Positions 1,303 to 54,998 of a stretch of 54,998 nucleotides of DNA are shown here, in pieces (position 1 is the stretch's first letter; the number at the start of each line of letters is the position of its first letter). Source of the DNA: Candidatus Aenigmatarchaeota archaeon (GTDB lineage Archaea; Aenigmatarchaeota; Aenigmatarchaeia; Aenigmatarchaeales; Aenigmatarchaeaceae); contig JAFCDY010000002.1 of the NCBI GenBank assembly GCA_017609445.1, forward strand, positions 1 through 54,998. Reading direction: 5' to 3'. A program made the translations under genes and the position numbers. Under the pieces are notes generated by a model, which worked only from the letters and a program-made list of their open reading frames with translations, searched no databases and was not told where the DNA came from.

Positions 1303-4300
1303 TCAGTAGTATTCTGTTCTGTAGCCCTCTTCACCAGAAGGATAATAATATTTGTCGTCATCTCTCTTTTCTTCCTTGGGACCTCTCTTCTTTTTACCGA
1401 GCAAATTGTTTATGATCTCTGTTACCTTATCCCTATACTTGAAGAAAGTTATTCCAGCTATTGCTACTACTATCACGATAGCAAATACCCATATGACTAT
1501 ACCATAGTCTGGAGGTGGCTCCTGCTGGTTCTCGAGAGAGGCTATGCTGCTCCTCAAGTCAGAAATCTTATTCATGGCTGAATCATATTTGCTCTTGGAT
1601 GTGGGGTAGTCTTTATCCAAGTAGGCGTCGCTTGCTTCTTCCAGTAAAGTAAGTGCATCGTTATACAGTGCTTCTATATCAGTGGTGTCCTTGCCTCTGT
1701 TCTTAAGGTCTGTTATGTTCTGTTGAAGAGACTGAACCTCAAGAGTTAGTGTTTGTGCCTCTACTGAGAGATCGTCTATAACATCTATTGTGACGTCAAC
1801 CTGCGCGTTACCGACAGAACTATAGATATTAATCTTGCCTGAATAGGTTCCCACATCTGTTCCTGTTGTGTCTACTCTTGCTTTGAGTGTGCCTTTGCCT
1901 GACGCAGATATTGTGTTTGGCTTGGTGACTATAGAGACCACTTGGGATGCGGTCCCTGATAGATTTGCTTCTATGTTTGCGGCTGAGACTGTGTCTTTGT
2001 TCTCCAATGAAAATGACTTGTCAAATACCTCATCTGGAACAGTGACCTCAGAGATGAAAGTTGGGGTCACCACCAGACTGCTCTGTGGCTGAACAGTAGC
2101 ATTATAGTTAAGAGATATGTCAATAACAATTCTAGCCACGTCAGAATCAATTGTTATAGTTCCAGTGTGGTTTCCTGGTACACTGACATTCAGATACGCT
2201 GTGAAATCAGTTGACCCGCCTGCAGATAGAGAAGATATATTATTTTTTGTGAGGCTTATGTATGGTTCTAGTTCTCCTCCCTCTGTTATGTTTATATCAT
2301 GCAGAGTGCTTGAACCGCCGTTGGTTATTGTGAATTTCTTGGTCTCTATTCCTGATGTATCTGTTACAACCTCCCAGTTCAGCGGTGTCACGGACAAAGC
2401 TGTGCCACCAGCATTAAACGACAGTGTACTGGTATAATTCCTGTAAGAATCATTAACCAGAATATCAACACTGAAAGATCCGCTTGTGGCATTTGAAGAT
2501 ATAGAATATATTGTGTCTGATGTTCCATTGTTTTCTATCTCGTCTATGAAACTCGCTGCATTTCCATCTGGGTCTGTTACATCTATACTGACAGTGAAGT
2601 TCATATCAGTGTAGACATTCTGTGTGGTAACGGTTATGGTAACATTGTCGCCAATGTCATATGATGAATTGTCAAGGGTAGAAAGTATGTTCCAGGCCTT
2701 AACAGATATAATTTTACTCTTATTTCCTATCTCTGGAACACTTGTTATCAGAGTGTAGTTGCCGTTAATTGACGACGGTTCCAAAGAATATGAATAGCTC
2801 CAGTGGGTAGCATTAATTTGATCCATATCTATAGAGTCTATCAGATTCTGACCATCTGGTTTTCTAATAGTAAGAAGCGCTCCGCTTATTGCTCCTTCAG
2901 TATAGACGTCTGCAACAACTATCTCTTCTGGAGTATAAGAATCCTTATCAGTTGCCATTGAGAAGTCTCCAGTTGTTGGGTTTATTATTTTGTAATTTCC
3001 GCCATATTTACCGAGACCTATCATTGAAGAGTTTTCCGCAACAACTTCCAAAATTACTCTTCCCCAATCGCTCGGAGTTATTATTTGTTGGCATAGATTG
3101 TGATTTGAATTGCAGAGAGCATTGACTGGTCCCTCCCCTATTATAGAAAAATTAGACATGTTCCAAATTCTATAGTACATATCAGAACCAAGTGGGCTAG
3201 AACCAGAATATGTACTCACATTTATTGTGTATGATGCACCTGGTTGATAATCGCCAGAATGTATGTTTATAGTCAAGTTTCCGCAAGTGACTGTGTCTGT
3301 ACCATAACCTTTGAGGACCTTGTCTTTCTCGTGAGCAGTCACATTTATTAAATATTCGAATGGATCACTTAATTTTATACTGTCTGTGTATCTGTATCCA
3401 AATGAAGGGTCAGATGTTTCTGTGATAAGGGATAGAGACCCAGTGTCACCTTCTGGTATAGTGGTATAGTTCACAAGATTAAGGATACCATAAACATGCG
3501 AACCCTGTGCTGTGACTAGAGCATATAACAAAAATTCAGTATCTTGTGTCACGTTCCTAGGAATTGAAATAACATCTACAATCCATTCATCTTCTCCTAG
3601 CAAGTTATATATTGTTCTGTCAAACACTTCCCAGGTCTGGCTTGTGAAGTCTGACGGATTTAATAATCCCCAGAAAGCTCCCCTGTCGGTTGTATTGACT
3701 ACAGAATAGGTTCCTGATGGCGAGACATCTGAACATAATGTTCCTATCCATCCTTCGTTTCCGTCCTGCTGCCCATGAACCCTGACTTCATGATTACTTG
3801 TAGAATATATTGGTGGATCGTGGTCAGAATCGATGTCTAAGTTAACTGTTATTGATCCCTCATTTAATTTTGACCAGTATGTGTAACCTCTTTTTGCCTC
3901 ACAGTTATTGTCAGACAGAGAAGTGCTAACCCCAAGATTCACTGGCGACCCGAAAGCGCATCCCTCTATACCAGCATTGTCTTTGTAGACGTTTCTGAAT
4001 GTCATGAAGACTTTTCTGTCGGCTGTAATGTAGTTGTTTATGTTTGAACAGAAGTTGTCTCTATCGCTTGAACTTGAATACACATCAGCAACAGTAACAT
4101 CACCTACGAATATTAAATCAGAACCGTCGGCCAAAGTTTGCCAGTGGCTGGCGCCATCCCTTACGAGAGACGGCTCTATAGTAGTAACATCATATCCTAT
4201 GGTCTCTAATCTGTCACAGAACTTTCTGTCTTCACTCCCTGATGTTATGCCTGAACATGTATTGACATCACCTGTATCAGATGTAACATAGAGTATTGTT

Positions 4301-4988: not shown

Positions 4989-6738
4989 AGAAATATCTGT
5001 TTTTTTCTTTCTGGTCCCTGTCCTTCTGGCTACCTGGTTTGTTTGCCCTCGGCCTTCCTGACTGCGGATCTTTTCTGAATGTTATGTCAACTTCTTTCAG
5101 AAATCGGTTGAATCCTTCCTGAAGCTCCAGCTGTTCAGCAGAACCACTCTTGCCAGACTCCCCGGTAAACAACATTGCCCTGTCTGAAAGGTAACTTAAA
5201 AACAACAGATCATGGTCTATTATCATTGCTGAACATTCCTTTTTCTCGCAAAATCTCTGTATGGTCTTGGCAACTGCTATCCTCTGTTCTACGTCTAAAT
5301 AAGCAGAAGGCTCATCCAGTAAATATAAGTCAGCTTCCTTTGAAAGACAGAGAGCGATAGCAACCCTTTGCAATTCACCACCAGATAAGTTAGAAACCTG
5401 ACTTTCTAGAAGTCTCTCGATTCCAAGAGGTCTCATTATTTCTGTCTTATATTCTTCTGTGAAGATCTTGTCTGTTGCTGACATCAACAGCTCAGAAACT
5501 GTTCCCGTAAAACTAGAAGAAATATATTGTGGCTTATAGGATATCCTCATTTTCTTGGTTATTTCTCCTTTGTCTAGTTTGATCTCACCTGCTAGTATTC
5601 TAGCAAATGTTGTTTTTCCTAATGCATTTGATCCAAATATTCCCAGAACCTCTCCTCTCTTGACGTATCCTTTTTTAATTTCAAGAGAGAATCCTTCGAA
5701 CTGTTTCACCATATCAGTGAATTCTAAACAAAATTCTTCCTGTCCCTCTTTAGCAGACTTTATATTTTTGAATTCCAATGGTTCGGGCCTTACTCTTACG
5801 TTATCTTCTTTGATAAAACCGTCCAAGAAAATATTAATGCCAACCCTTGTTCCGTATGGTTTTGAAACAATTCCAAACGCACCCGGATAACCGTAAAAAA
5901 CATGTATTCTGTCGGAGAGAAAGTCCAGTGTCGCTAGATCATGCTCAACCACCATGACAGCTGATTCCTTTGAAAGTTCTCTTATTAGTTTTGCAACCTG
6001 CAGCCTCTGTTTGACGTCCAGATAACTGGAGGGTTCATCAATATAGTATATTCCGGCCTTCCTGACTGCTGTAATTGCTATCGCAACTCTTTGTAACTCT
6101 CCGCCTGACAACTGCTTCAGTTCCCTGTCTTTACAATTAGTTAATCCAAGTTTACCTATGATCTCATCGGTAATTCCCTTTTCATCATATTTCTTTATTG
6201 TATCATAAGCAGTTCCATTTACCTCAGATAAAATGTCTATTTGCTGCGGTTTGACAACAGCTTTTATTTTGTTTTTTTCTAATTGTTCAAGATGCTTTTG
6301 TAATTCAGTTCCCCTGAATATCCTTATGAGTTCCTTTATGTCAGTTTCTTCTGTTTTTCCTAGATTAGGCTTCATCTCGCCAGATAGAATATTGAGAGTT
6401 GTGGTTTTTCCTACGCCATTTGGACCTAATAATCCAACTACTTCTCCCTGAACAGGGAAAGGCAATCTAAATAACGTGAAGCCGTTTTTTCCAAACCTAT
6501 GAATAGGTTCTTCTTTTAATTTTTCAGGAGTATTGACAACAGTTATCGCCTTGAAGGGACATTTCTTGATGCATAATCCGCATCCGATGCACAGTTCCTC
6601 GTCTATTGTTGATTTCTCAGGATCGCCGCTAAGAAAAACACATTTCTCTCCTGATCTGTTTATCGGACAGACGTCAATGCATTCTAGAGAACATTTTTTT
6701 GGTCTGCATCTCTTTCTGTCTATTATAGCGATTCTCAT
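4978..6738 (-). CDS. abcE1: ABCE1 / RNase L inhibitor homolog (ribosome recycling ATPase)
   Basis: N-terminal 4Fe-4S ferredoxin cysteine clusters (CxxCxxC..CP twice) followed by two ABC ATPase cassettes. The cassettes show Walker A (GPNGVGKTT, GSNALGKTT), signature (LSGGELQR twice) and Walker B motifs. Confidence 0.95.
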   Translation of the reverse strand: MRIAIIDRKRCRPKKCSLECIDVCPINRSGEKCVFLSGDPEKSTIDEELCIGCGLCIKKCPFKAITVVNTPEKLKEEPIHRFGKNGFTLFRLPFPVQGEVVGLLGPNGVGKTTTLNILSGEMKPNLGKTEETDIKELIRIFRGTELQKHLEQLEKNKIKAVVKPQQIDILSEVNGTAYDTIKKYDEKGITDEIIGKLGLTNCKDRELKQLSGGELQRVAIAITAVRKAGIYYIDEPSSYLDVKQRLQVAKLIRELSKESAVMVVEHDLATLDFLSDRIHVFYGYPGAFGIVSKPYGTRVGINIFLDGFIKEDNVRVRPEPLEFKNIKSAKEGQEEFCLEFTDMVKQFEGFSLEIKKGYVKRGEVLGIFGSNALGKTTFARILAGEIKLDKGEITKKMRISYKPQYISSSFTGTVSELLMSATDKIFTEEYKTEIMRPLGIERLLESQVSNLSGGELQRVAIALCLSKEADLYLLDEPSAYLDVEQRIAVAKTIQRFCEKKECSAMIIDHDLLFLSYLSDRAMLFTGESGKSGSAEQLELQEGFNRFLKEVDITFRKDPQSGRPRANKPGSQKDRDQKEKNRYFYVE

Positions 6739-6770
6739 AGAAGTGTTTTGATTAGAATAACTTATATAGA

Positions 6771-7271
6771 TTATTCAAAAGCTAGTTCCACTTTGTTGTC
6801 ATACATGTTTGTTATGATTTCTGAGAAGATGTCTTTAGAAACATGAACTCTATTCCTGTCTGCTTGGGATATTCTCACTTTATGGACTTCTCCCTCCGGA
6901 GTATATACTGTATTGATACCGACGACAGGCACTGGTGAAAACAAATTTTTCAGAAACTCTTTGAAGTTGTCTGCTTCTTCAACCACCCTTATCGGTTTGT
7001 TGAACTCTTTTGCCAAAGCCTTCACAACAGACCCCGCCTTGCCAACTATCCTAGCGGCGTCCCCTCTACCAGCTATTATCAGAACAACGTCAGAATTTAT
7101 TACCTTGATTATTTTTGCGTCTGAGAGTGTCCTTATTTTACTGCTTAATTTGAACAAGAACTTCAAAATATTTATTTCATTATCAGATAATCTTCCACTG
7201 TCTAGTTTTTCCTTACAGGCACTACATAAAAGATCAGAGTTCAGACATACTTCACAAATAGGGGTTTTCAT
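6771..7271 (-). CDS. NusA-like KH-domain RNA-binding protein with an N-terminal zinc ribbon
   Basis: The N-terminus has CEVC...CSAC. The KH-type GxxG region is IVGKAGSVVKALAKEFNKPIRVVE, followed by a NusA-like FLKNLFSPVPV segment. Confidence 0.55.
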   Translation of the reverse strand: MKTPICEVCLNSDLLCSACKEKLDSGRLSDNEINILKFLFKLSSKIRTLSDAKIIKVINSDVVLIIAGRGDAARIVGKAGSVVKALAKEFNKPIRVVEEADNFKEFLKNLFSPVPVVGINTVYTPEGEVHKVRISQADRNRVHVSKDIFSEIITNMYDNKVELAFE

Positions 7272-7324
7272 ATTTATCAGACCTATTTAATTATTATAGT
7301 AGAAAGATATAAAAGTTGATTGTT

Positions 7325-8452
7325 ATGGAGATAGGAATTGTAGGCAAGACAAACACAGGGAAGTCAAGTTTTTTCAAGGCTGCGACCCTCATAGATGTGG
7401 AAATAGGCAACAGAACATTTGTAACCATAAAGCCTAACCAGGGGGTTGGGTTTGTTACTGTTTCTTGCCCTTGCAAAGAGTTAGGAGTCAAGTGTAATCC
7501 TAACAACTCAAATTGTGTCAATGGTATTAGATTTGTCCCTGTTAAACTTTTGGATGTCGCTGGGTTGGTTCCCGGTGCGCATGAGGGAAGAGGTTTGGGG
7601 AATAAATTCTTGTCTGATCTGACGAGAGCAGATGTTCTAATATATGTAGTTGATATATCTGGTACAACTGATGCTGAAGGCCAGCCGACATCTGGTTACG
7701 ATCCTTCCAATGATATAAAATTTTTAGAGGAAGAAATCGATCTTTGGTTTGAGTCTGTAATAAAAAGAAACCTCGAAAAAATAAAAGACGAAAAGAAAGC
7801 TGCGACTGTCTTGTCCGGCTTGGGAATAAAAGAGAGACATATTTTAGAAGCCCTCGAAAAAACTGGCGTGGAGCCTTCCAAACTGTCTAGGGAACTAAGA
7901 AAACTGTCTCTTCCTATTGTTGTGGCTGCAAACAAAATTGATGTCGCTGGTTCTGATAAGAACCTAGATGATGCTAAGAATAATTTTTCTGATTTAACAA
8001 TAATCCCCTGTTCAGCGGAATCTGAGATAGCTCTGAAGCAAGCTTCCAAGTCAGGAGTGATTGAATATATCACTGGTTCTGATAATTTCAAAGTAAAGGG
8101 TAAGGTAAATGAAAAACAAGAAAAGGCTCTTGAGTTCGTCAAGAAATCTGTCTTAGAGAAATATGGTTCAACTGGTGTGCAGGAGTGTCTGAATAAATCA
8201 GTATTTGACTTCTTAGAATATATCGTGGTCTATCCTGTTGAAAACGAGAACAAGTTGTCAGACAAGAAAGGAAATGTTCTTCCTGATGCGCACCTGATGC
8301 CTAAGGGTTCAACTGTTATTGATCTCGCTCACAAAGTTCATGAAGATATTGGGAAGAACTTTATCGGAGCCATTGATGCTAGGACCAAAAAGAGAATAGG
8401 GGCTGACCACGAATTGAAAAACGGAGACATAATTTCTATTCAATCCAGATGA
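7325..8452 (+). CDS. YchF/Obg-family GTPase with a C-terminal TGS-like domain
   Basis: P-loop GIVGKTNTGKSS, G3 DVAGLV and NKID motifs, and a C-terminal TGS-like end (LKNGDIISI). The track ORF starts at TTG 7316, but the first ATG at 7325 is the likelier start. Confidence 0.8.
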   Translation: MEIGIVGKTNTGKSSFFKAATLIDVEIGNRTFVTIKPNQGVGFVTVSCPCKELGVKCNPNNSNCVNGIRFVPVKLLDVAGLVPGAHEGRGLGNKFLSDLTRADVLIYVVDISGTTDAEGQPTSGYDPSNDIKFLEEEIDLWFESVIKRNLEKIKDEKKAATVLSGLGIKERHILEALEKTGVEPSKLSRELRKLSLPIVVAANKIDVAGSDKNLDDAKNNFSDLTIIPCSAESEIALKQASKSGVIEYITGSDNFKVKGKVNEKQEKALEFVKKSVLEKYGSTGVQECLNKSVFDFLEYIVVYPVENENKLSDKKGNVLPDAHLMPKGSTVIDLAHKVHEDIGKNFIGAIDARTKKRIGADHELKNGDIISIQSR

Positions 8453-8489
8453 TCATCTTCTTGTGTGTAAATAGTGTATGACGTGTTTT
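8451..8489. repeat. Left copy of a perfect 39-bp direct repeat (GATCATCTTCTTGTGTGTAAATAGTGTATGACGTGTTTT)
   Basis: Read directly from the sequence and identical to 9513-9551. It overlaps the TGA stop of the GTPase gene. Confidence 0.95.
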
Positions 8490-9512
8490 GTCTTGGAGGT
8501 TGGGGATCTTGATATTCGATTCTTCGCGGATTCGCTGAAACAGCTTCTCCCTAGGAATGATTCCTTTGTATTCAAACCCGTTATCTTCAGTCATTTCGCG
8601 CCCCGGTATTCTTTCCTATTTCCGGGTTGAGTTTAGATACATTTCTTCAAATTCTGGACGAATGCCCGTCCGAATCTAGACTAGACCACTACTACTTGAT
8701 AGTAAACTTTTTAAATGTAGGATGTCAAATAATAACAGGGGTATGTATGAGTCCAGAAACCTATGATGGCCTGATATTTTGGGGAGTAGATAACGACAAG
8801 TTAGCGGCAAAGGTAGGTAGAAGACTTGAAGATAATCCTCCTGAAGGCATCAAAGTTATTGAATACACTGGTGATACAGACTCTCCTGGCTGGTATAAGG
8901 AACTTGATCAATTCATATATGTCGAAGATGCTATAGCCGCTTTAGAGAAAGCATATAGCAGGGAGCATATCCAGAAGCTTCATGATATGGACGGTGTTTA
9001 TGTTAGAGAAATATACGATTGGGAAAGAAATCTTCTTAAGAATTACAAAGCGAGATTCAGCATTGAGTTACATGATACCCCGACGAGAAGAGGATTTCGT
9101 GAAGATGATTGCAGTGAGAAAAGGGGATTGATCGATATAGGGCTCCTAATACCATCATTTAACAGGAAGATGTTTCATCTTTTAGATGAATACTGCAAAG
9201 CCACCAGACCAACTTTAGTCGAGGAATACAACATAGAATATTTCTCCGCTAGCTCAAGGCTTCTGGGTACAGCACCGTATCATCAGATTCTTGTGGAAAT
9301 CGACCACGATCCACTTAAATGCCATACAACGCAAATGGCAGAGCAGAGAGTAGAAAACACGTCCAATGCCCTCATTGAACTAATCCAGTATATGCAAAAA
9401 CAATACCCTAAGCTGTGGAAAAAATATATTTGATTGAGAAACATTGACCATATCTGGTATGACAAACGAATCCCTGAGTCCGCATGAGATAGTAATCATT
9501 TCGTGTCTAAAC
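8490..9512. mobile_element. Putative inserted cassette or integrated-element remnant bounded by the 39-bp direct repeats; no recombinase recognised
   Basis: 1023 bp lie between the two repeat copies. The segment carries its own TATA-like box and orphan ORF(s). The right copy forms the last 12 codons of the MFS gene, so the left copy looks like an att/target duplication. Confidence 0.35.
8747..9433 (+). CDS. Hypothetical protein (orphan) carried on the insertion
   Basis: The track ORF 8627-9433 starts at TTG. The in-frame ATG at 8747 lies about 30 bp downstream of the TATA-like CTTTTTAAAT (8707-8716), which fits a leaderless mRNA. No motif was recognised. Confidence 0.5.
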   Translation: MSPETYDGLIFWGVDNDKLAAKVGRRLEDNPPEGIKVIEYTGDTDSPGWYKELDQFIYVEDAIAALEKAYSREHIQKLHDMDGVYVREIYDWERNLLKNYKARFSIELHDTPTRRGFREDDCSEKRGLIDIGLLIPSFNRKMFHLLDEYCKATRPTLVEEYNIEYFSASSRLLGTAPYHQILVEIDHDPLKCHTTQMAEQRVENTSNALIELIQYMQKQYPKLWKKYI

Positions 9513-9551
9513 GATCATCTTCTTGTGTGTAAATAGTGTATGACGTGTTTT
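9513..9551. repeat. Right copy of the perfect 39-bp direct repeat
   Basis: Identical to 8451-8489. It encodes the C-terminal residues (..KHVIHYLHTRR*) of the minus-strand MFS gene. Confidence 0.95.
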
Positions 9552-10864
9552 AATTCTCTTAGAGTACTTTCAATCGGAAACACTACAAGGACATTGAAGA
9601 ACATGTTCTTAAGGTGTACATTTTTCTTATTCACCCTAACCTCATTGAATCTGGGCATGAACGCGCCGACAAAGATGATTCTAAGAAAGAAAGATAATAG
9701 GAACAACAACTGAATCCCAACTAAAGTGAATAGACTAAATCCTGTGAAATATGCTGCAAGCAAACCACCAACCAAAGGACCGACGAACAACCCTGCTTTA
9801 CTCAAGAATCTATAGTTTGCTACAAATGAGGGACTCTCATTTTTAGGGACAACATCTAAAAGATAGTTGAAGCTAGCCAAACTAAAACCAGCAAAAACAA
9901 ACCCAGAAAATATCTGAACTAGCATTGCTTGTGGACCGTTTGTCACAAATATAAAAGGCAAAATACCAAGAGGTGTCAAAATAGAACATATCCTAAGGAC
10001 CAAAACATCCCCATATCTGTCTGATATGACTCCCCAATACCTCTGGGAAACGACGCTTGTTAATATGAAACCTGCAGTAACAGCTGCAAACCAGAAATAT
10101 CCTATTTCAATTGTTTTTAACATAGAGACTATGATAAAAGGAGACGCCATACCGACCGCAAGATGCATGAGCATTCTGAAGATGACAAAATTAGAATAGT
10201 TCTTATGCTCCCTGATACCCCTTAGGAAATGCGGAAAACTAAAATGAAAGTGTTTGTGAGATTTTGGTGGGTCTGTGTCTGGGACCCTCTTCATATAAAA
10301 ATAGGATATCATACCAAAGACAAACGAGATTGCGAAGATTACAGCAAATCCCTGGATGTTGTCTATCCACCCGAGAAACCAACCAGCAGACAGGGTAGCT
10401 AAGAAAGAAGCCAGATTATTGAACATGTTTCTTGTTCCGAAAAACCTTCCTCTGATTCTTTCTGGAACCAGATCAGCCATCCAGGTAGTCCAAGCAGTGC
10501 TGCCTATCTCACTGAATATTGCATACAGAGATAAGAACAGCAGAATAATCCAGATACCGCCATCGTAGAAGAATGGGACAAATATAATGGGCAACAAGAA
10601 GAGCCTGTTGAATAAGGCTGTCACAAGTGATGCTCTTTTTTTGCTGTTAGTCTTCTTTATGAACTTAGAAGAGAAGAGCTGCGAGAGCATCCCGACAAGT
10701 TCAGGCAGAGCTTTTATTAGACCAATCATTTCATTTCCTGCGCCGACAGCTAGGGCGAGAGGTATCATATAGTTGTCCTTTATTCCCTGCCTGACATGGT
10801 TAGTGAAACCATGTTTTAGAGAATTCTTTAGTCCTCTGTCTACCTGTTTCTTAGATAATTTCAT
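9515..10864 (-). CDS. Major facilitator superfamily (MFS) transporter
   Basis: 449 aa with about 12 hydrophobic helices and an MFS-like loop motif (PERIRGRFFG) after the second or third helix. Confidence 0.8.
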   Translation of the reverse strand: MKLSKKQVDRGLKNSLKHGFTNHVRQGIKDNYMIPLALAVGAGNEMIGLIKALPELVGMLSQLFSSKFIKKTNSKKRASLVTALFNRLFLLPIIFVPFFYDGGIWIILLFLSLYAIFSEIGSTAWTTWMADLVPERIRGRFFGTRNMFNNLASFLATLSAGWFLGWIDNIQGFAVIFAISFVFGMISYFYMKRVPDTDPPKSHKHFHFSFPHFLRGIREHKNYSNFVIFRMLMHLAVGMASPFIIVSMLKTIEIGYFWFAAVTAGFILTSVVSQRYWGVISDRYGDVLVLRICSILTPLGILPFIFVTNGPQAMLVQIFSGFVFAGFSLASFNYLLDVVPKNESPSFVANYRFLSKAGLFVGPLVGGLLAAYFTGFSLFTLVGIQLLFLLSFFLRIIFVGAFMPRFNEVRVNKKNVHLKNMFFNVLVVFPIESTLRELKHVIHYLHTRR

Positions 10865-10870
10865 AGTTCA

Positions 10871-11068
10871 TCATTTTTTCTTCTTTTTTGGCTTTTCCAT
10901 ATAACCTGTGTAGAAAATCAAAACGCCTAAGATGATCAATACCAAGGGACCTAATCCTTTAGCTATTCCCCAGAGGTATACCCAATATCCCTTACCTAAA
11001 AAAGAAATAGGCAATATTAACCATAATCCTATCAGGAACACAACTATACCAGCTATCTTCTTTATCAT
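10871..11068 (-). CDS. Small two-TM membrane protein with a poly-lysine tail
   Basis: 65-aa ORF with two hydrophobic helices, ending in KPKKKKK. It lies 6 nt upstream of the MFS gene on the same strand. Confidence 0.4.
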   Translation of the reverse strand: MIKKIAGIVVFLIGLWLILPISFLGKGYWVYLWGIAKGLGPLVLIILGVLIFYTGYMEKPKKKKK

Positions 11069-11127
11069 GCACTCACCTAAATCTTTATGATTTGTTTCTC
11101 TATAAATAAATAACTAAGAAAGAGAAT

Positions 11128-11502
11128 TCATCCGGTTACTCCTGTAGCTTCCAGTAACATAGTTTGGATTTCTGCCAATTGATTTTCTGGTAGAGAATAG
11201 ATATAACCAAAGATGGAGTCTTTATCGCCTCCTGTTGTGCCAACTTCTTTCACACCATGTTCAGATACCAGATGAGAAATAGCCTCAGGGACTCCTTCCC
11301 AAGAATAGTTCCAGCCTGCTCCTGCTCCCATCGGATCGTAGGACATAGCAAGCCCAAACCGCTCTGGTTGTTTGGGTTGATAATGACCTTTACAGTACTC
11401 TTTGTTTCCATAAACCTCAACTCTTCTGATTCGGGGCCCATCGAATGTACACTCAGACCCTAGACTACAAGAACCTTTTTTCATATTAGACATAACTTTC
11501 AT
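11128..11502 (-). CDS. Hypothetical protein (orphan)
   Basis: Open frame 11128-11520. An ATG at 11502 lies downstream of a TATA-like box in the promoter region shared divergently with L15e. No motif was recognised. Confidence 0.45.
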   Translation of the reverse strand: MKVMSNMKKGSCSLGSECTFDGPRIRRVEVYGNKEYCKGHYQPKQPERFGLAMSYDPMGAGAGWNYSWEGVPEAISHLVSEHGVKEVGTTGGDKDSIFGYIYSLPENQLAEIQTMLLEATGVTG

Positions 11503-11580
11503 ACTACATATAATAAACAAAAATCTTTATAAGTGTTCCATTTATATATAGATAACTAAGCTTGAAGCCAATGGGGCGAT

Positions 11581-12138
11581 GTGAGAATGGGAATGTACAA
11601 ATATATCAAAAAAACTTGGAGAAGTCCTGAGTACAAGGAAATACAGAAAGAGAGACTGATTTCTTGGAGAAAACAGCCTGTCACCCTTAAAATTGACAGA
11701 CCTACCAGACTGGACAGAGCCAGATCTCTGGGATACAAAGCAAAACAAGGTTATGTTCTGGTCAGGACAAAAATAGGAAAGGGTACGAGTAAAAGAGAAA
11801 CTCCTTCTGGAGGCAGAAAACCACTGCATGCAGGAAGAACAAAGCATACACCAGGAATGAGTCTGCAGAGGATAGCTGAAGGGAGAGTAAATAAGAAATT
11901 TCCGAATCTTGAAGTTCTGAACAGCTACTATGTGGCCGACGACGGAAAGAGCAAGTGGTTTGAGGTAATTTTGATTGATCCCAACCATCCTGTCATCAAG
12001 AACGATCCGAAAATGAAGTGGATTGGAAGGCAGAAGAGGAGAGTTTACAGAGGACTGACGTCTGCTGGAAAGAAGGGAAGAATGATGAGAGGAAAAGGCA
12101 AAGGATTTGAGAGAAAGAACAAACCCAGAATGAGATGA
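11581..12138 (+). CDS. rpl15e: 50S ribosomal protein L15e
   Basis: [15 protein letters not shown]... then a very basic protein with the L15e-typical N-terminus and length. The start may be the ATG at 11587. Confidence 0.9.
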
Positions 12139-12143
12139 ACAAT

Positions 12144-12181
12144 TTTGTACAACAAAAATGTTTAAATATTTGTACAACAAA
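12144..12181. promoter_or_regulatory. TATA box (TTTAAATA, 12161-12168) flanked by two copies of TTTGTACAACAAA, each containing the palindrome TTGTACAA
   Basis: Direct reading shows 13-bp repeats at 12144-12156 and 12169-12181. The site lies upstream of the 44-codon ORF at 12190. Confidence 0.5.
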
Positions 12182-12189
12182 TTCTTAGT

Positions 12190-12324
12190 ATGGTGAGAGT
12201 GGGAAAAGCCAACAGCATAACTGTAATAGTAAGGGATAGAAAGAAAGGGAAGAGCAAGTCTTTCACAGTCTATGATGCGAACGTCAATGAAGTTATAAGG
12301 AAAATAAAGAGAGCTTTGAGATGA
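12190..12324 (+). CDS. Small basic ORF (44 aa), hypothetical
   Basis: Own translation: MVRVGKANSITVIVRDRKKGKSKSFTVYDANVNEVIRKIKRALR*. It is below the ORF-track cutoff and is preceded by the TATA/operator arrangement. Confidence 0.3.
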   Translation: MVRVGKANSITVIVRDRKKGKSKSFTVYDANVNEVIRKIKRALR

Positions 12325-12346
12325 TTCTATTGTCGTTAGCTTCCTG

Positions 12347-12369
12347 TAGAAAGGTATTTAAGTTTTTCT
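12347..12369 (+). promoter_or_regulatory. BRE/TATA promoter module TAGAAAGGTATTTAAGTTTTTCT
   Basis: The TATA-like TATTTAAG lies about 30 bp upstream of the ATG at 12385 (leaderless geometry). A 22/23 identical copy is at 54906-54928. Confidence 0.55.
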
Positions 12370-12384
12370 GAACAAGATAAGCTT

Positions 12385-12708
12385 ATGAATAGACATAAGA
12401 AAAAAGAGAAAGGCGCTCCGGTAATTTTTGGTGGTGGCAGAAAAACAGGAACCAATCTTGGAGATGCGTGGACACGATATAAGCTTGGTGGTAATGGAGG
12501 TGTCTATATGGAAGATCTTCAATTAGACGGCATCAATAAAGGAAGACACAATGGGCCACGTGGCCAATATGGTTCTTACATGGTGATTGTAACCGGGGGC
12601 TTTAACTATAGAAAGCTAAGGGGAGGATCTACTGTCAATTTAGAAATAACCAAGGTAAGCGGAAATCTTGCCCTAGGAAGGTCCATTAAAGAAGTACCAA
12701 CTTTATAA
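12385..12708 (+). CDS. Small glycine-rich basic protein, hypothetical; the C-terminal part is weakly TRAM/OB-like
   Basis: 107-aa ORF behind a strong consensus-like promoter. The pattern ..YMEDLQLDG..GSYMVIVTGG..GGSTVNLEITKV..ALGRSI loosely resembles TRAM-domain beta strands. Confidence 0.45.
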   Translation: MNRHKKKEKGAPVIFGGGRKTGTNLGDAWTRYKLGGNGGVYMEDLQLDGINKGRHNGPRGQYGSYMVIVTGGFNYRKLRGGSTVNLEITKVSGNLALGRSIKEVPTL

Positions 12709-34577: not shown

Positions 34578-35760
34578 TTTTCTTCACCAACAAATTGAAA
34601 ATATCCTCAGAGTCGCCCTCTACTAATAGATCAAATATATCCTGGATGTTTATATCACAATTCAGTTGTTTCAAATTATCTTCAAGTATCCTGATTCCAT
34701 GTTCCTCTGGCGAGAGCTTCTGTTCTCTTATTAGCTTGACTAATTCGACCTGCTCTTTAAGACTTTCTGATTTTAGTTTTCTGTCGATCTTAATTATCGC
34801 TCTGTCAGAGTACTTCCTTTCTATTTCATTGAAATCAATAGGAGCAGAATCTTTTGGAAGCGTTCCTTTTATTTTTAGTACTGCTATTGGTTTGTTTTGC
34901 ATCTGGGGAATGCTGCCCAACATACTTTCTACATCGTTAGCAATGTTTGAAGTGTATTCAAACTCGTTCCAGAATATTTTTCTTTGCGACTCAAGAGGTA
35001 TTTTTTTTATCTCTCCATTGTATTGATAGACATACTTTGGTTGAAGTGATTCTGTTTTATGAAGAGAAGTATATGTAGTGCTGCCGGTTAAGAGAAACTT
35101 TCCACTGTTTAGATCTTTGATTTCGCTCCAGTGTATGTGACCTAAAATGTACAGATCAAAACCATTCGGAAGGTCCTGCAGTTTTATTGTGGGCGGCTCA
35201 AGAGGAGAATAGATATAGGGTTCGATGCTCTGGTGGAACATCAAAATGTTCAACGCGTCTGGAATTGGTTGTGGATTCCATTCTCTGAGAACAGAGCCAG
35301 CATACCTGTCTGGAACGCCGGACATTCCGTGTATGGCTACTTTTTTTCCATCAACTTCAAAGACAGCTGTTGAACAGTTCAGATGGATCAGCAGCCCTGC
35401 ATGTTCTAAAGCCTGTATTGGATTAACCAGATGCTTTGATCTTCTCTCATGCGTCCCGTGAATTGCTACTATTGGTATTCCTCTCAGAGCTAGAGGCGAT
35501 ATTTCATGTTTTTCCTTGTTTTTTATCTCTGAGAAGGATGTTCTGGATGGAACATGTTGGGCTTTTGACAATATTCTGGCTGCTCTTGAAAATACTTCAG
35601 GTCTTGGAACTCTTGTGTCGAATATGTCTCCTGCCATCAGGATTAGATCAGAGTCAAGTGATTTTTCTATTGCTTCCTCCAATCCTAGGAAAGAGTCTTC
35701 TCCTCTCTCTGATCCATATGCAAATCCACAGTGACAATCAGAAAATATAGAGATTTTCAT
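34570..35760 (-). CDS. mre11: DNA double-strand break repair nuclease Mre11
   Basis: Phosphoesterase motifs SDCHCG, AGDIFD, GTHE(RR), GHIH and HQ. Confidence 0.9.
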   Translation of the reverse strand: MKISIFSDCHCGFAYGSERGEDSFLGLEEAIEKSLDSDLILMAGDIFDTRVPRPEVFSRAARILSKAQHVPSRTSFSEIKNKEKHEISPLALRGIPIVAIHGTHERRSKHLVNPIQALEHAGLLIHLNCSTAVFEVDGKKVAIHGMSGVPDRYAGSVLREWNPQPIPDALNILMFHQSIEPYIYSPLEPPTIKLQDLPNGFDLYILGHIHWSEIKDLNSGKFLLTGSTTYTSLHKTESLQPKYVYQYNGEIKKIPLESQRKIFWNEFEYTSNIANDVESMLGSIPQMQNKPIAVLKIKGTLPKDSAPIDFNEIERKYSDRAIIKIDRKLKSESLKEQVELVKLIREQKLSPEEHGIRILEDNLKQLNCDINIQDIFDLLVEGDSEDIFNLLVKKNE

Positions 35761-53510: not shown

Positions 53511-54908
53511 ATGAAAAGACTAATACCTTTCTTGTTGGCGGTTTTGATAGTTTTGCCTATAGCCGCTTATGCCCAGGATTTCTCATTAACAATAGAAGAT
53601 GAAGATGAGTACCTGGCAGGAAAGACATATGACTTAAACCTAACAATAGACAATTCGGGTCCTGAGGAATGGTTCTCAATATCATTATTAGGCGTTCCTT
53701 CTGACTGGATGAGCACTTCAACAACATCTCTTAAAGTTGATCAGGGTTCGTCTGGCACAATGAGACTGATACTTTCTTCTCCAAAAGATTCAAAACCAGG
53801 GTTTTACAGTTATCTATTAACAGTCACGAGACCCAGCACAGAAGCAAAGGTGCAGAGGCAATTATTGGTGTGGATAAGGCAAATTTCGTCTGCTTTGGTG
53901 ACTGATGTCGAATTGAGCTGTAGACAGTGTCTGGACAGTGTTATTGTCTCTGGTTTTGTGGATAACATCGGAACAGTGGACCAGGAACTAACTCTCAATG
54001 TCAGGATGAATGACCAGGAGTTCACGCATGATCTCGGACTTTTGAATGTTTCTGACAAAATATCTTTTGAAGATACGTTCTCACTTGCAGACATGATGCC
54101 AGACAACTACAGCATAGAATTCGAACTAAAGAACAAATCAGGTCATATTGTATTTACAAACGAAGAGAAGTTTGATCTGAGAAGAGTAAAAAATATAAGT
54201 TATGTGAAGCGCTCGTCAACAAACCCATTTGGAATTTTTGTCACGCTGGGTGCGACAAACTATGGCAATGGTGTTGATACAGCAAACCTTAATTCGACAT
54301 TAACCAAAGAATGGTATACTGTTTATTCTGGTCCAGAACCATCAGATATTTCTGATAATGACTATGTCTGGTCAATAGAACTAAATCCAGAAGAGAGCAC
54401 AGAAATGAGTTACTCTGAAGTTTATTGGCCAGTCATTGTATTGATAATAGGTGTGATAATATTTGGTTTAATATCATACATTCAGTTAGTCACATTATCT
54501 ATAAGGAAGAGGGTAAGAACAAGGAAAATAGAAAAGGGCAAGCCAATTTCTGTCGCATTACATATAAAGAGCAGGATGAGGACAGCCGAGTCTGTTGTTG
54601 TAAAGGATTTCATCCCCAACGGATTCAAGATAACTCAAAAGTTTGAAACTGTCAAGCCCCTGATAAGAAAGAAAGATAATGGGACAGAAGTTGTCTGGAA
54701 AGTTGGAAGAATAGGCAAAAGCGAGGAAAGAATTCTTCACTATAGGATAACACCTGTCAAGGACTTCTCTGGTAAAGTTCAGTTACCGCCAAGCAAGATA
54801 AGAGTAAAGTACGGCGGAAAGCCTGCAGAAGAAAGATCAAATTCAGTTGTTCTTTATGGCAAGGGTGAAGAACCCCCAAAGAAGATACTTCTTGTGAAAG
54901 TTGAATAG
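53511..54908 (+). CDS. Membrane-spanning surface protein with an N-terminal NEW3/CARDB-like domain and a C-terminal DUF11-like domain
   Basis: Signal peptide MKRLIPFLLAVLIVLPIAAYA, a beta-rich ectodomain, a TM (VIVLIIGVIIFGLISYI) and a roughly 130-aa domain after the TM. The ATG is at 53511 within the track ORF. Confidence 0.6.
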   Translation: MKRLIPFLLAVLIVLPIAAYAQDFSLTIEDEDEYLAGKTYDLNLTIDNSGPEEWFSISLLGVPSDWMSTSTTSLKVDQGSSGTMRLILSSPKDSKPGFYSYLLTVTRPSTEAKVQRQLLVWIRQISSALVTDVELSCRQCLDSVIVSGFVDNIGTVDQELTLNVRMNDQEFTHDLGLLNVSDKISFEDTFSLADMMPDNYSIEFELKNKSGHIVFTNEEKFDLRRVKNISYVKRSSTNPFGIFVTLGATNYGNGVDTANLNSTLTKEWYTVYSGPEPSDISDNDYVWSIELNPEESTEMSYSEVYWPVIVLIIGVIIFGLISYIQLVTLSIRKRVRTRKIEKGKPISVALHIKSRMRTAESVVVKDFIPNGFKITQKFETVKPLIRKKDNGTEVVWKVGRIGKSEERILHYRITPVKDFSGKVQLPPSKIRVKYGGKPAEERSNSVVLYGKGEEPPKKILLVKVE

Positions 54909-54928
54909 AAGGGTATTTAAGTTTTTCT
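54906..54928 (+). promoter_or_regulatory. Second copy of the promoter module (TAGAAGGGTATTTAAGTTTTTCT)
   Basis: 22/23 identical to 12347-12369. It begins at the TAG stop of the preceding gene, and the downstream target runs off the window. Confidence 0.5.
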
Positions 54929-54998
54929 ACACAACATCATTATAGGTGTTAATTTGTCGTGTCCTTTTGAGAGAAGGATGTTCGATAGACACGAGAAC

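Follow-up and report, generated by a model that had tools for sequence, protein, structure and literature searches.

Tyrosine-integrase elements of archaea and bacteria are known to leave degenerate islets, which are flanked by attL and attR at the 3′ end of a target gene. Att cores at the 3′ ends of genes are classically recognised by a repeat that matches the last stretch of the gene and whose outer limit lies just beyond the stop codon. A second well-described group comprises SCCmec and the pseudo-SCC elements, which rely on the Ccr large serine recombinases, insert at the 3′ end of rlmH/orfX, carry short direct repeats and include ccr-less derivatives. The att sites of large-serine-recombinase elements have an imperfect dyad symmetry about a 2-bp crossover, and the identity that they share is short. 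The documented illegitimate events of prokaryotes are mostly short patches or are accompanied by target deletions. A search of the literature returned nothing on the locus described here or on a long-duplication mechanism in Aenigmatarchaeota.

The locus lies in a window of 54,998 nucleotides, which is the whole stretch of DNA that was analysed. Judged from its sequence, it is a recent integration scar in a chromosome of the Aenigmatarchaeota (DPANN), and the inserted DNA derives from a mobile genetic element. This foreign DNA of 1,023 bp separates two core genes, one for a GTPase and one for an MFS transporter. The features of the region are listed below.

7325–8452 (start at 7316 or 7325), plus strand: Obg-like GTPase of the YGR210/OLA1 type, left flank; TGA stop at 8450–8452
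8451–8489, no strand: left repeat copy; it duplicates the MFS 3′ end without being functional and is either attL-like or a target duplication
8479–8594, minus strand: stump of gene X, first 38 codons; ATG at 8594
8595–8746, no strand: divergent intergenic (promoter) region of the element module, collinear with L003
8747–9433, plus strand: ORF228, intact; it belongs to a small mobile-element-associated family that lacks annotation
8918–9007, no strand: tract of perfect identity to L003, 90 bp inside an otherwise about 80%-identical gene
9434–9512, no strand: 79-bp tail from the ORF228 stop to the right repeat; the wHTH-containing gene found there in relatives is absent
9513–9551, no strand: right repeat copy, the native and functional 3′ end of the MFS gene
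9515–10864, minus strand: MFS transporter (Pfam MFS_1), right flank

The GTPase, called by JGI as a protein of 375 aa, contains the Pfam domains MMR_HSR1, YGR210-like_G4 and TGS and is 70% identical to its orthologue from Ca. Aenigmarchaeum subterraneum. Orthologues of the MFS transporter were found at 62%, 59%, 43%, 41% and 37% identity, all of them in syntenic L15e-linked loci. An exact search of the 55-kb window for the 39-mer GATCATCTTCTTGTGTGTAAATAGTGTATGACGTGTTTT returned exactly two copies, at the positions given by the first-pass annotation. No third copy was found in the window at up to three mismatches, the repeat was absent from all 100 shuffles, and it is the sole long exact direct repeat in the 55 kb. 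The second base of the GTPase TGA is also the first base of the left copy, in agreement with the earlier description. The right copy contains one base of a Leu codon of the MFS gene, the 11 codons that follow it (KHVIHYLHTRR) and the stop. The C-terminal motif is kept in orthologues as KHLIHYSSQMK, KHLTHTPA and KLLAHHLHRKQKK. Because the encoded C-terminus is conserved in this way, the right copy is regarded as the original sequence, and its proposed role as functional coding sequence is borne out. Merging of the two copies leads to a GTPase TGA that is directly followed by TCA, which reproduces the abutting stops postulated earlier. The 39-mer has an MFE of 0 and no self-complementarity or dyad symmetry, and the shared identity spans 39 bp. 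No likeness of the 39-mer to any of the element loci rose above that of shuffled sequences. The first-pass annotation had suggested looking for further copies of the repeat or of the insert; none was detected in the window, the fetched loci or IMG/VR. There is no tRNA gene and no Rfam match in the window.

The empty site, which was also to be sought in relatives, is present in two loci. In L038 the MFS and GTPase stops are 2 bp apart, and in L041 the order KH-GTPase-MFS is found with gene ends that overlap by 15 bp; both belong to relatives at 41–62% MFS identity, not to strains. Comparison of these loci shows that the GTPase and MFS genes were ancestrally arranged tail to tail, 0–2 bp apart or overlapping. 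The empty sites and the native right copy support the earlier proposal: two convergent genes that used to abut received an insertion of about 1 kb, and the accompanying 39-bp duplication left both of them intact. At the same junction, L039 carries an independent insertion of about 1.06 kb with an AsnC regulator and an orphan ORF as cargo. It is flanked by a decayed duplication of about 18–20 bp of the GTPase 3′ end, which ends at the GTPase stop. The L039 cargo has no homology to the cargo in the window. In Ca. A. subterraneum the interval holds NUDIX and DUF4382 genes.

The same insert with both repeat copies is present in a separate contig of 740,627 bp (JGI 3300033153, Ga0366824_1000001). 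Over 14 kb, this contig and the 54,998-bp contig differ at a single position, a SNP at 10125. Look-ups of exact matches to the GTPase and to ORF228 returned only contigs with identical neighbours and no strain-level empty-site allele; both available assemblies contain the occupied allele only. It is highly improbable that one repeat copy is an assembly error, or that ORF228 is an old resident lost in relatives. All evidence does come from metagenome assemblies, and the two, at 99.99% identity, may share reads. However, 39 bp is far below the read length and typical final k-mers, and two contigs with a SNP between them agree, so that an assembly artefact is unlikely. Vertical inheritance is opposed by the homology of the insert to mobile-element DNA in other genomic contexts and by the abutting genes in two relatives at different distances. 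Furthermore, gene loss in relatives cannot yield a duplicated, out-of-context MFS 3′ end.

From 8479 to about 9430 the insert is collinear with the L003/L004 integrative element, with 78% DNA identity. In the related elements a Ccr-like large serine recombinase gene and gene X point leftward, and ORF228 points rightward, followed by a wHTH-containing large gene and, farther on, a HerA/DUF87 ATPase. Gene X and the ORF228 homologue stand back to back. The homologue is the first gene of the rightward operon, and the large ORF starts 21–32 bp downstream of it. Serine recombinases adjoin the module in L003, L004 and L005, and the order X–ORF228–large gene is also found in L006. These recombinases carry Resolvase and Recombinase domains. 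The best matches of those beside X in L003 and L005 are the CcrB/CcrC models with an E value of 1e-42, at scores far below the models' cut-offs. Full-length X has 154–238 aa in L003, L005 and L006. The nearest relative of the insert, L003, is located on Ga0366824_1000574, in an unrelated GC-rich (60–68%) genome from the same metagenome.

The stump of X shares about 65% aa identity with the N-terminus of the 154-aa L003 protein (MTEDNGFEYKGIIPREKLFQRIREE... versus MIEKNGFEYEESISREKLFQRIREE...). The 52-codon ORF on the minus strand (8436–8594) that had been listed as a possible gene does exist, but it is not an independent gene: it is the X stump, whose reading frame continues across the repeat as far as the 3′ end of the GTPase gene. 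The last 11 nt of the left repeat copy also match gene X of the donor family (TGACGTGTTTT versus TGGCGCGTTTT in L003), with 9/11 positions identical in register. The chance of a match of at least 9/11 at the left joint is about 2e-4, the comparison being made with a 78%-identical relative of the donor. Over its first 28 nt, the left copy is not significantly similar to L003.

A TATA-like sequence, TTTTTAAAT, lies at about 8707–8716, some 30 nt upstream of ORF228, as had been pointed out before, and is kept in the L003 homologue as TATTTAAAT. ORF228 retains this TATA-like promoter of its own and may still be expressed. The inverted repeat CCCGG-N16-CCGGG at 8602–8627 is likewise real, but it is not significant as a hairpin. 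Shuffled sequences fold equally well (z = -0.85), L003 does not conserve the element, and it was rejected as a functional site. The 79-bp tail showed no similarity above shuffles to L003, L005, L006 or L007.

The 228-aa ORF is not the orphan that it was taken for. A word-indexed search revealed four homologues (P0002–P0005; 78–44% identity), and a profile search retrieved 27 cluster representatives, so that a small family associated with mobile elements exists. The dN/dS ratio against the L003 copy is 0.12–0.15, and the family is, by this measure, under purifying selection. Within ORF228, a 90-bp tract is identical to L003, and 41 codons are free of synonymous differences, against a background pS of about 0.5–0.6; this is likely to reflect a recent gene conversion. 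No match was obtained in Pfam, PHROGs, NCBIfam, PADLOC, PDB sequences, PDB folds or BFVD, and further family members have no additional Pfam domains. A tblastn search with ORF228 of phage and plasmid collections gave no match, and no relatives were found in IMG/VR. A search of the protein for a cryptic recombinase or nuclease fold had been suggested. Profile and structure searches gave no sign of one: no family matched, and for the AF2 model (pLDDT 72, pTM 0.71) Foldseek hits in PDB and BFVD reached TM values of at most 0.32.

The absence of an integrase, transposase and terminal inverted repeats, reported by the first-pass annotation, holds for the insert. The insert, the JGI-annotated 14 kb and 20 further large ORFs of the window yielded no recombinase or integrase, and tblastn of the window with the L003 and L005 recombinases gave no match. 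The insert contains no transposase. Its ends show no terminal inverted repeats (alignment score 8; 269/1000 shuffles did as well), and neither the repeat nor the insert ends form a significant hairpin of the attC kind. Transposition and integron routes are therefore excluded. On its gene content, the insert is a fragment of an element cut at both ends, because X stops at codon 38 and the gene downstream of ORF228 is missing. With X cut, the downstream gene gone and no recombinase, it is unable to move by itself.

Of the three origins previously offered for the insert, the minimal self-contained cassette therefore finds the least support, while the remnant of a larger element and a recombinase-independent capture both stand as viable. 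A functional minimal cassette would be a 1,062-bp unit (the insert plus one 39-mer), a satellite mini-element that still excises and integrates by means of an integrase provided in trans by a full-length relative, analogous to ccr-less pseudo-SCC elements. It would represent a still-active form of the site-specific route proposed below. Its perfect repeats, the intact ORF228 with a conserved promoter, the purifying selection on the family and the Ccr-like recombinases in the family agree with this. So does L005, a locus on Ga0180732_1000137 with its right end at 35,485, where a perfect 47-bp direct repeat surrounds a 3.6-kb integrase-less islet beside a related element. The right copy of this repeat abuts the inferred end of an ORF228-type element, a tyrosine integrase is encoded farther along the locus, and the 47-mer is absent from IMG/VR. 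Long cores and integrase-less islets thus occur around the ORF228 family. A functional cassette is nevertheless improbable: a truncated gene lies inside it, no recombination-site structure is recognisable, the searches described above yielded no further 39-mer and no further insert, both assemblies contain the occupied site only, and no helper element was seen in the 55-kb window.

We propose, with about even confidence, that an att-type integration took place at the MFS 3′ end and that the element decayed afterwards or that a defective derivative had formed beforehand. An ORF228-family element, or a defective derivative mobilised in trans, would have carried an att core mimicking the MFS 3′ end. 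Site-specific recombination would then have placed it at this 3′ end, and for this reason the repeat would be the terminal segment of the MFS gene, ending 2 nt past its stop. Microhomology-mediated deletions would then have removed all of the element except ORF228, the promoter region and the stump of X. One of them would have entered attL, which would have shortened the repeat to its 39 bp and given rise to the 9/11 overlap with X. The empty sites in L038 and L041, the native right copy and the collinearity of the insert with a recombinase-linked module favour this route. The L039 duplication points in the same direction, since it likewise consists of the last nucleotides of a gene, here the GTPase, up to the stop. 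The same holds for the att-like position of the repeat at the end of a gene, for the long core and integrase-less islet of L005, and for the lack of terminal inverted repeats, a transposase and an attC-like structure.

Several observations speak against integration of the att type. Neither the insert nor the searched ORFs of the window encode an integrase or recombinase. Both insert ends lie inside the module, so that integration and at least two deletions are needed while the repeat stayed perfect. The recombinases next to X in the relatives are of the serine type, and the 2-bp crossover of a serine recombinase neither needs nor creates a 39-bp repeat. The 39-mer lacks dyad symmetry, the 79-bp tail, if read as a residual att arm, matches nothing, and neither a full-length copy at this site nor an excision product was seen. 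An attP inside gene X, as in an SSV-like split gene, was considered and rejected. The similarity of the first 28 nt of the 39-mer to X of L003 was matched by 185/2000 shuffles, and the frame ends 2 codons beyond the right copy. X is intact in L003, an element that is apparently itself integrated according to its GC shift, and attP therefore does not lie within X.

The main alternative, which we hold only tentatively, is a capture in one step. In this case, a linear or single-stranded element fragment of about 1 kb would have been joined by illegitimate, microhomology-mediated recombination without a recombinase. This could have happened through a template switch during replication, of the MMBIR/FoSTeS or DIR/SPDIR type, or through the fill-in of a break with 39-nt staggered ends. 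Joints 39 bp apart would duplicate the target, and the duplication would be retained by selection since it spans both stops. The SPDIR report describes that ectopic single strands can integrate at microhomologies during replication (10.1101/2023.11.22.568220). A single event of this kind accounts for everything, including the still-perfect repeat. Both insert ends fall within the donor module, with X broken off at codon 38 and the downstream gene missing, which is what a random fragment would look like, and no recombinase, terminal inverted repeats or structured site are present. The in-register 9/11 overlap of target and donor at the left joint (p ~2e-4) also fits, but it is equally expected from a microhomology-mediated deletion after integration. 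The location of the nearest insert relative in a GC-rich, unrelated genome of the same metagenome fits the uptake of foreign fragments by DPANN archaea, and the 90-bp identical tract indicates recent DNA contact. Genes for Mre11 and Rad50 are present in the window.

To our knowledge, no pathway of this kind has been documented in prokaryotes to produce a 39-bp target duplication around a 1-kb insert, which counts against the capture. The junction falls at the extreme edge of the duplication both in the window and in L039; the joint chance of this under random staggering is roughly 0.05, whereas att cores account for it naturally. The observed overlap concerns the left joint, and the 79-bp tail that adjoins the right one lacks a homologue. 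It is rather doubtful that DPANN archaea of this lineage repeatedly gain foreign or element pieces of about 1 kb free of recombinases, with target duplications of 20–40 bp and preferentially at convergent-gene junctions. Under the recombinase-free reading, the route could be a staggered break or a template switch, and the donor could be an element in the GC-rich neighbour of the same community, possibly the host, as the 90-bp identical tract would suggest.

The locus is a real and tidy integration scar, but no new kind of mobile element. It provides a small, clean example of gene gain in a streamlined DPANN genome: the place of insertion, the duplicated target, the empty state of the ancestor and the element family that served as donor are all directly visible. 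Since L039 was hit independently at the same zero-length junction and also carries a duplication, the ends of convergent genes may be favoured as safe places for insertion where genomes are densely packed with genes. The 90-bp tract shared with a GC-rich genome of the same sample suggests that distant lineages exchanged DNA recently, and it could serve as a clue to a symbiont–host pairing. If the recombinase-free reading were true, the locus would represent an unusual long-duplication capture mechanism and a separate way for ultra-small symbiotic archaea to gain genes. Only the anatomy of the locus is considered established, and the wider implications are not.

Compared with transposons and IS elements, the insert has neither a transposase nor terminal inverted repeats, and its duplication is 39 bp rather than 2–15 bp. 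An integron cassette would have an attC hairpin and an IntI integrase with its attI platform; the insert has no significant hairpin at its ends and no integrase. In elements of the large-serine-recombinase type, represented by L003, L004 and L005, the recombinase is present, but it is absent from the copy in the window. Illegitimate integration, as described for HFIR, DIR and SPDIR in Acinetobacter and for MMBIR/FoSTeS, shares with the locus the arbitrary donor ends, an apparent microhomology at one joint, the lack of a recombinase, a target duplication at the breakpoints and a non-autonomous donor fragment. A 39-bp duplication around 1 kb and the repeated use of one junction are, however, non-standard for these pathways.

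The similarity to SCCmec and pseudo-SCC lies in the insertion at the last codons of a conserved gene, the gene-preserving repeats and the Ccr-like recombinases of the relatives L003 and L005; recombinase-less derivatives are known there too. The locus differs in its repeat of 39 bp instead of about 15–18 bp, its archaeal host, the lack of ccr and the truncated element gene, and the likeness, which is drawn from distant recombinase similarity in relatives, is a suggestive one. With the att-flanked islets, the locus shares perfect repeats that reproduce the 3′ end of an intact target gene, mobile-element cargo, an empty site and a decayed, integrase-less state. Its target is the end of a protein-coding gene that abuts a convergent neighbour, not a tRNA gene. 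The copy in the window is only 1 kb long with two non-native ends and no linked integrase of any type, and the recombinases associated with the homologous module elsewhere are of the serine type. As in core-gene integration hotspots, the same interval holds varied cargo, from none (L038, L041) to that of L039, of Ca. A. subterraneum and of the window. Here the interval between the convergent stops is of zero length, and two of its occupants keep target duplications, which provide unusually direct evidence of the arrival of cargo.

The 39-mer GATCATCTTCTTGTGTGTAAATAGTGTATGACGTGTTTT occurs in exactly two copies in the window, at 8451–8489 and 9513–9551, and is its sole long exact direct repeat. 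No third copy was found in the window with up to three mismatches allowed, nor in 100 shuffled sequences. The copies touch the ends of two convergent genes:

Positions 7325–8452, plus strand: Obg-like GTPase of the YGR210/OLA1 type.
Positions 9515–10864, minus strand: MFS transporter.

The left copy, on the GTPase side, begins at the second base of the GTPase TGA. The right copy encodes KHVIHYLHTRR and the stop of the MFS gene, and merging both copies brings TGA and TCA side by side. Since this MFS C-terminus is kept in orthologues (KHLIHYSSQMK, KHLTHTPA and KLLAHHLHRKQKK), the right copy is regarded as native and the left copy as the duplicate. The perfect repeat, the identities of the flanking genes and the functional role of the right copy, all described in the first-pass annotation, agree with these results. 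The GC content of the insert (0.39–0.42) is the same as that of its surroundings. Elsewhere in the window, the 32-nt motif TAGAAAGGTATTTAAGTTTTTCTGAACAAGAT, which includes the TATA-like TATTTAAG, is found at 12347–12378 and again, with 88% identity, 42.5 kb away at 54906–54937, probably as a promoter element common to both sites.

The window is a contig of 54,998 bp. The same insert with both repeat copies is present in a second contig, of 740,627 bp, from the JGI metagenome 3300033153; over 14 kb a single SNP distinguishes them (G/T at 10125, Ser/Tyr in the MFS protein). The two represent near-identical populations or assemblies, and because the second contig carries the insert and both copies, a one-off assembly error is unlikely. 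The rest of the window encodes housekeeping functions (ABCE1, ribosomal protein L15e, RNase P subunits, aminoacyl-tRNA synthetases, eIF2-gamma, Mre11 and Rad50), and the locus belongs to the core chromosome of a member of the Aenigmatarchaeota (DPANN).

The interval between the MFS and GTPase genes was read from the contigs of MFS orthologues, and five states were seen. In L038 (MFS 62% identical) 2 bp separate the two stop codons, and in L041 (41%), which has the same KH-GTPase-MFS order as the window, the genes overlap by 15 bp. Two genes, about 1,057 bp, lie between them in L039 (59%); NUDIX and DUF4382 genes take this place in Candidatus Aenigmarchaeum subterraneum (37%), and L040 (43%) is without the GTPase. 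From these states it follows that the abutting arrangement is ancestral and that the interval has been filled repeatedly. The proposed insertion of about 1 kb between formerly abutting genes is thus borne out, L038 and L041 providing the empty site that was to be sought in related genomes.

The flanking genes differ in their relationships, as seen when window positions 7325–8452 and 9515–12138 are compared with Ca. A. subterraneum (L021), L038, L039 and L041. The GTPase is 70% identical to the Ca. A. subterraneum orthologue and 46–51% to those of L038, L039 and L041; the MFS protein (59–62%) and L15e (73–75%) are nearest to L038 and L039, the former being only 37% identical to that of Ca. A. 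subterraneum. This phylogenetic discordance could mean that the junction is, in addition, an old breakpoint of recombination or replacement; strongly unequal evolutionary rates could equally produce it. In the Ca. A. subterraneum single-cell assembly, a 200-aa ORF (L021 9963–10565) consists of an N-terminal 100 aa of L15e and an unrelated C-terminal half, which on visual inspection looks like the C-terminal end of an Nre-type protein such as the one adjoining the MFS gene in L040. A fusion, a deletion or a chimera of the single-cell assembly could account for this ORF. In another DPANN-like MAG contig, L025, the GTPase orthologue is enclosed by a near-perfect direct repeat of about 170 bp (2514–2685 and 11163–11334, 8,649 bp apart, with exact blocks of 34, 23 and 93 bp), which could mark an island between att sites or a segmental duplication.

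The occupied interval of L039 carries a duplication of its own. Directly after the MFS stop lies ATTTTGTAGCTGAGATGA, a decayed copy of the last ~18–20 nt of the GTPase gene:

L039 (ENA ERZ27247851 k141_7551710), positions 2277–2296 and 3334–3353: decayed duplication.

Against the GTPase end of L039 itself it has 14 matches in 18 positions, among them an exact 10-mer 1,057 bp away, and against that of L038 it has 15 in 18; random 30-mers reached an equal score in 25 of 5000 trials. The cargo, an AsnC/Lrp regulator and a 119-aa orphan ORF, showed no relation to that of the window. The copy spacing of 1057 bp is close to the 1062 bp of the window, and in both the outer duplication edge is at a stop codon. 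The L039 insertion is independent of that in the window, so that one junction has received two different cargos, each with a target duplication (~20 bp on the GTPase side in L039, 39 bp on the MFS side in the window). The non-functional left copy of the window is still identical over 39 nt, and the L039 relic has diverged at ~22% of positions; the window insertion therefore appears comparatively recent.

The insert encodes ORF228, a 228-aa protein (8747–9433). The first-pass annotation called it an orphan. Relatives exist, yet few: a word-indexed search of 5.8 billion proteins returned four (78%, 46%, 44% and 47% identity), and an exhaustive profile search 27 cluster representatives. Their contexts are mobile-element-like. 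In L003/L004, the nearest relative, and in L005, the ORF228 homologue is divergent from a small gene, X (154–238 aa). After X comes the gene of a large serine recombinase that has Resolvase and Recombinase domains; among NCBIfam models, CcrB and CcrC fit it best, with scores far below the cut-offs. On the 3′ side follow a large gene and a HerA/DUF87 ATPase. The large genes share a weakly conserved wHTH-like N-terminus and have variable TPR, PAS or STAND-NTPase (nSTAND3) C-terminal parts:

L003, positions 8733–11288: large downstream gene.
L005, positions 8847–9782: large downstream gene.
L006, positions 1475–3283: large downstream gene.

They are reminiscent of sensor or defence-type modules; PADLOC matched no system in them beyond generic TPR. 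L005 encodes a tyrosine integrase ~7 kb further along. In the same contig (JGI 3300020171 Ga0180732_1000137), a perfect 47-bp direct repeat (1674–1720 and 5293–5339, 3,619 bp apart) encloses an FRG-domain protein, an IS240-like DDE fragment and others, with no integrase and no tRNA. Its right copy directly adjoins the point inferred as the left terminus of the ORF228-type element, and the repeats may form a tandem att array. The GC-rich host flank of L003 contains three exact intergenic copies of a 21–25 bp motif (1651–1675, 3255–3279 and 4124–4145), possibly a repeat of the REP or terminator kind.

From 8479 to ~9430 the window is collinear with L003 (7749 to ~8711) at 78% DNA identity. The match takes in X as far as codon 38, the promoter region between the divergent genes with its conserved TATA-like box, and the ORF228 gene. 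By this collinearity, the previously suggested 52-codon ORF is not a gene in its own right: it is the N-terminal stump of X (~65% amino acid identity) running into the repeat. The ORF228 stop is separated from the right repeat by 79 bp that matched nothing, and the gene that is conserved on this side in relatives is absent. With X cut short as well, the insert is an internal fragment of a larger element, truncated at both ends, and not the minimal mobile cassette considered earlier. Gene scans, comparison of the ends and tblastn with the element recombinases gave no terminal inverted repeats and no integrase or transposase in the insert, as first reported, and no recombinase of any kind there or among 34 annotated or scanned neighbouring genes. 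The insert matched no RNA family and has no significant hairpin, the CCCGG-N16-CCGGG structure proposed earlier included.

ORF228 had no match in Pfam, PHROGs, NCBIfam, PADLOC, PDB sequences, or phage or plasmid records. Its AF2 model, moderately confident (pLDDT 72, pTM 0.71), resembled no fold in PDB or BFVD (TM ≤ 0.32). Since both searches were empty, the suspected cryptic recombinase finds no evidence. The family is under purifying selection, comparison with the L003 copy giving a dN/dS of 0.12–0.15. Within these otherwise ~80%-identical copies, 90 bp (window 8918–9007) are identical, with 41 codons free of any synonymous change, which suggests recent gene conversion between lineages. The L003/L004 element (L003 about 5275–12500) has 38–45% GC and is embedded in a genome of 60–68% GC found in the same metagenome and in a second one. 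DNA may have passed between a DPANN cell and a neighbour or host unrelated to it.

Similarity to L003 extends 11 nt into the left repeat, and TGACGTGTTTT and TGGCGCGTTTT agree in register at 9 of 11 positions (chance ~2e-4). Therefore target- and donor-derived sequence overlap at the left joint, amounting to microhomology; the other 28 nt of the repeat have no significant similarity to X. In L003 the GC content drops to the element's level at the recombinase end, and X is intact. With no significant similarity of the 28 nt to X, and X intact in the apparently integrated L003 element, a model of the SSV type, in which attP would lie within X, was rejected. Transposition and integron-type insertion are excluded by the insert anatomy.

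We slightly favour site-specific integration, a trans-mobilised variant included, through a long att core mimicking the MFS 3′ end. The element would integrate there and then be stripped by deletions, or a defective derivative would form before integration. Att-type scars at gene 3′ ends are common. The repeat is exactly the terminal segment of the gene, ending 2 nt past the stop, a pattern that recurs in L039; the cargo belongs to an integrative-element family; and the L005 repeat bounds a 3.6-kb integrase-less islet and adjoins the inferred end of an ORF228-type element. This reading has to accommodate the absent recombinase, the serine type of the neighbouring recombinases in relatives, and at least two deletions during which the repeat stayed perfect. 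The arbitrary insert ends and the left-joint microhomology would instead be explained by a single event, in which a fragment was taken up by one illegitimate microhomology-mediated step with joints staggered by 39 bp. It would also fit such a capture that the insert has its closest relative in an unrelated genome, rich in GC, from the same sample. We consider this the less probable course; the stop-codon edges would then need coincidence. We know of no documented 39-bp duplication formed in this way. The nearest mechanistic precedent for such a capture is SPDIR, as outlined in the preprint 10.1101/2023.11.22.568220.

A literature search found no paper on this locus or on a mechanism of this kind in Aenigmatarchaeota. 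Insertions have repeatedly used the point where two convergent core genes abut. The insertion, its empty site and the donor family can all be read with unusual clarity, and there is a hint that DNA has crossed between lineages to enter a DPANN genome. In kind the locus is a known one: a degenerate integrated mobile-element fragment with a target or att duplication.
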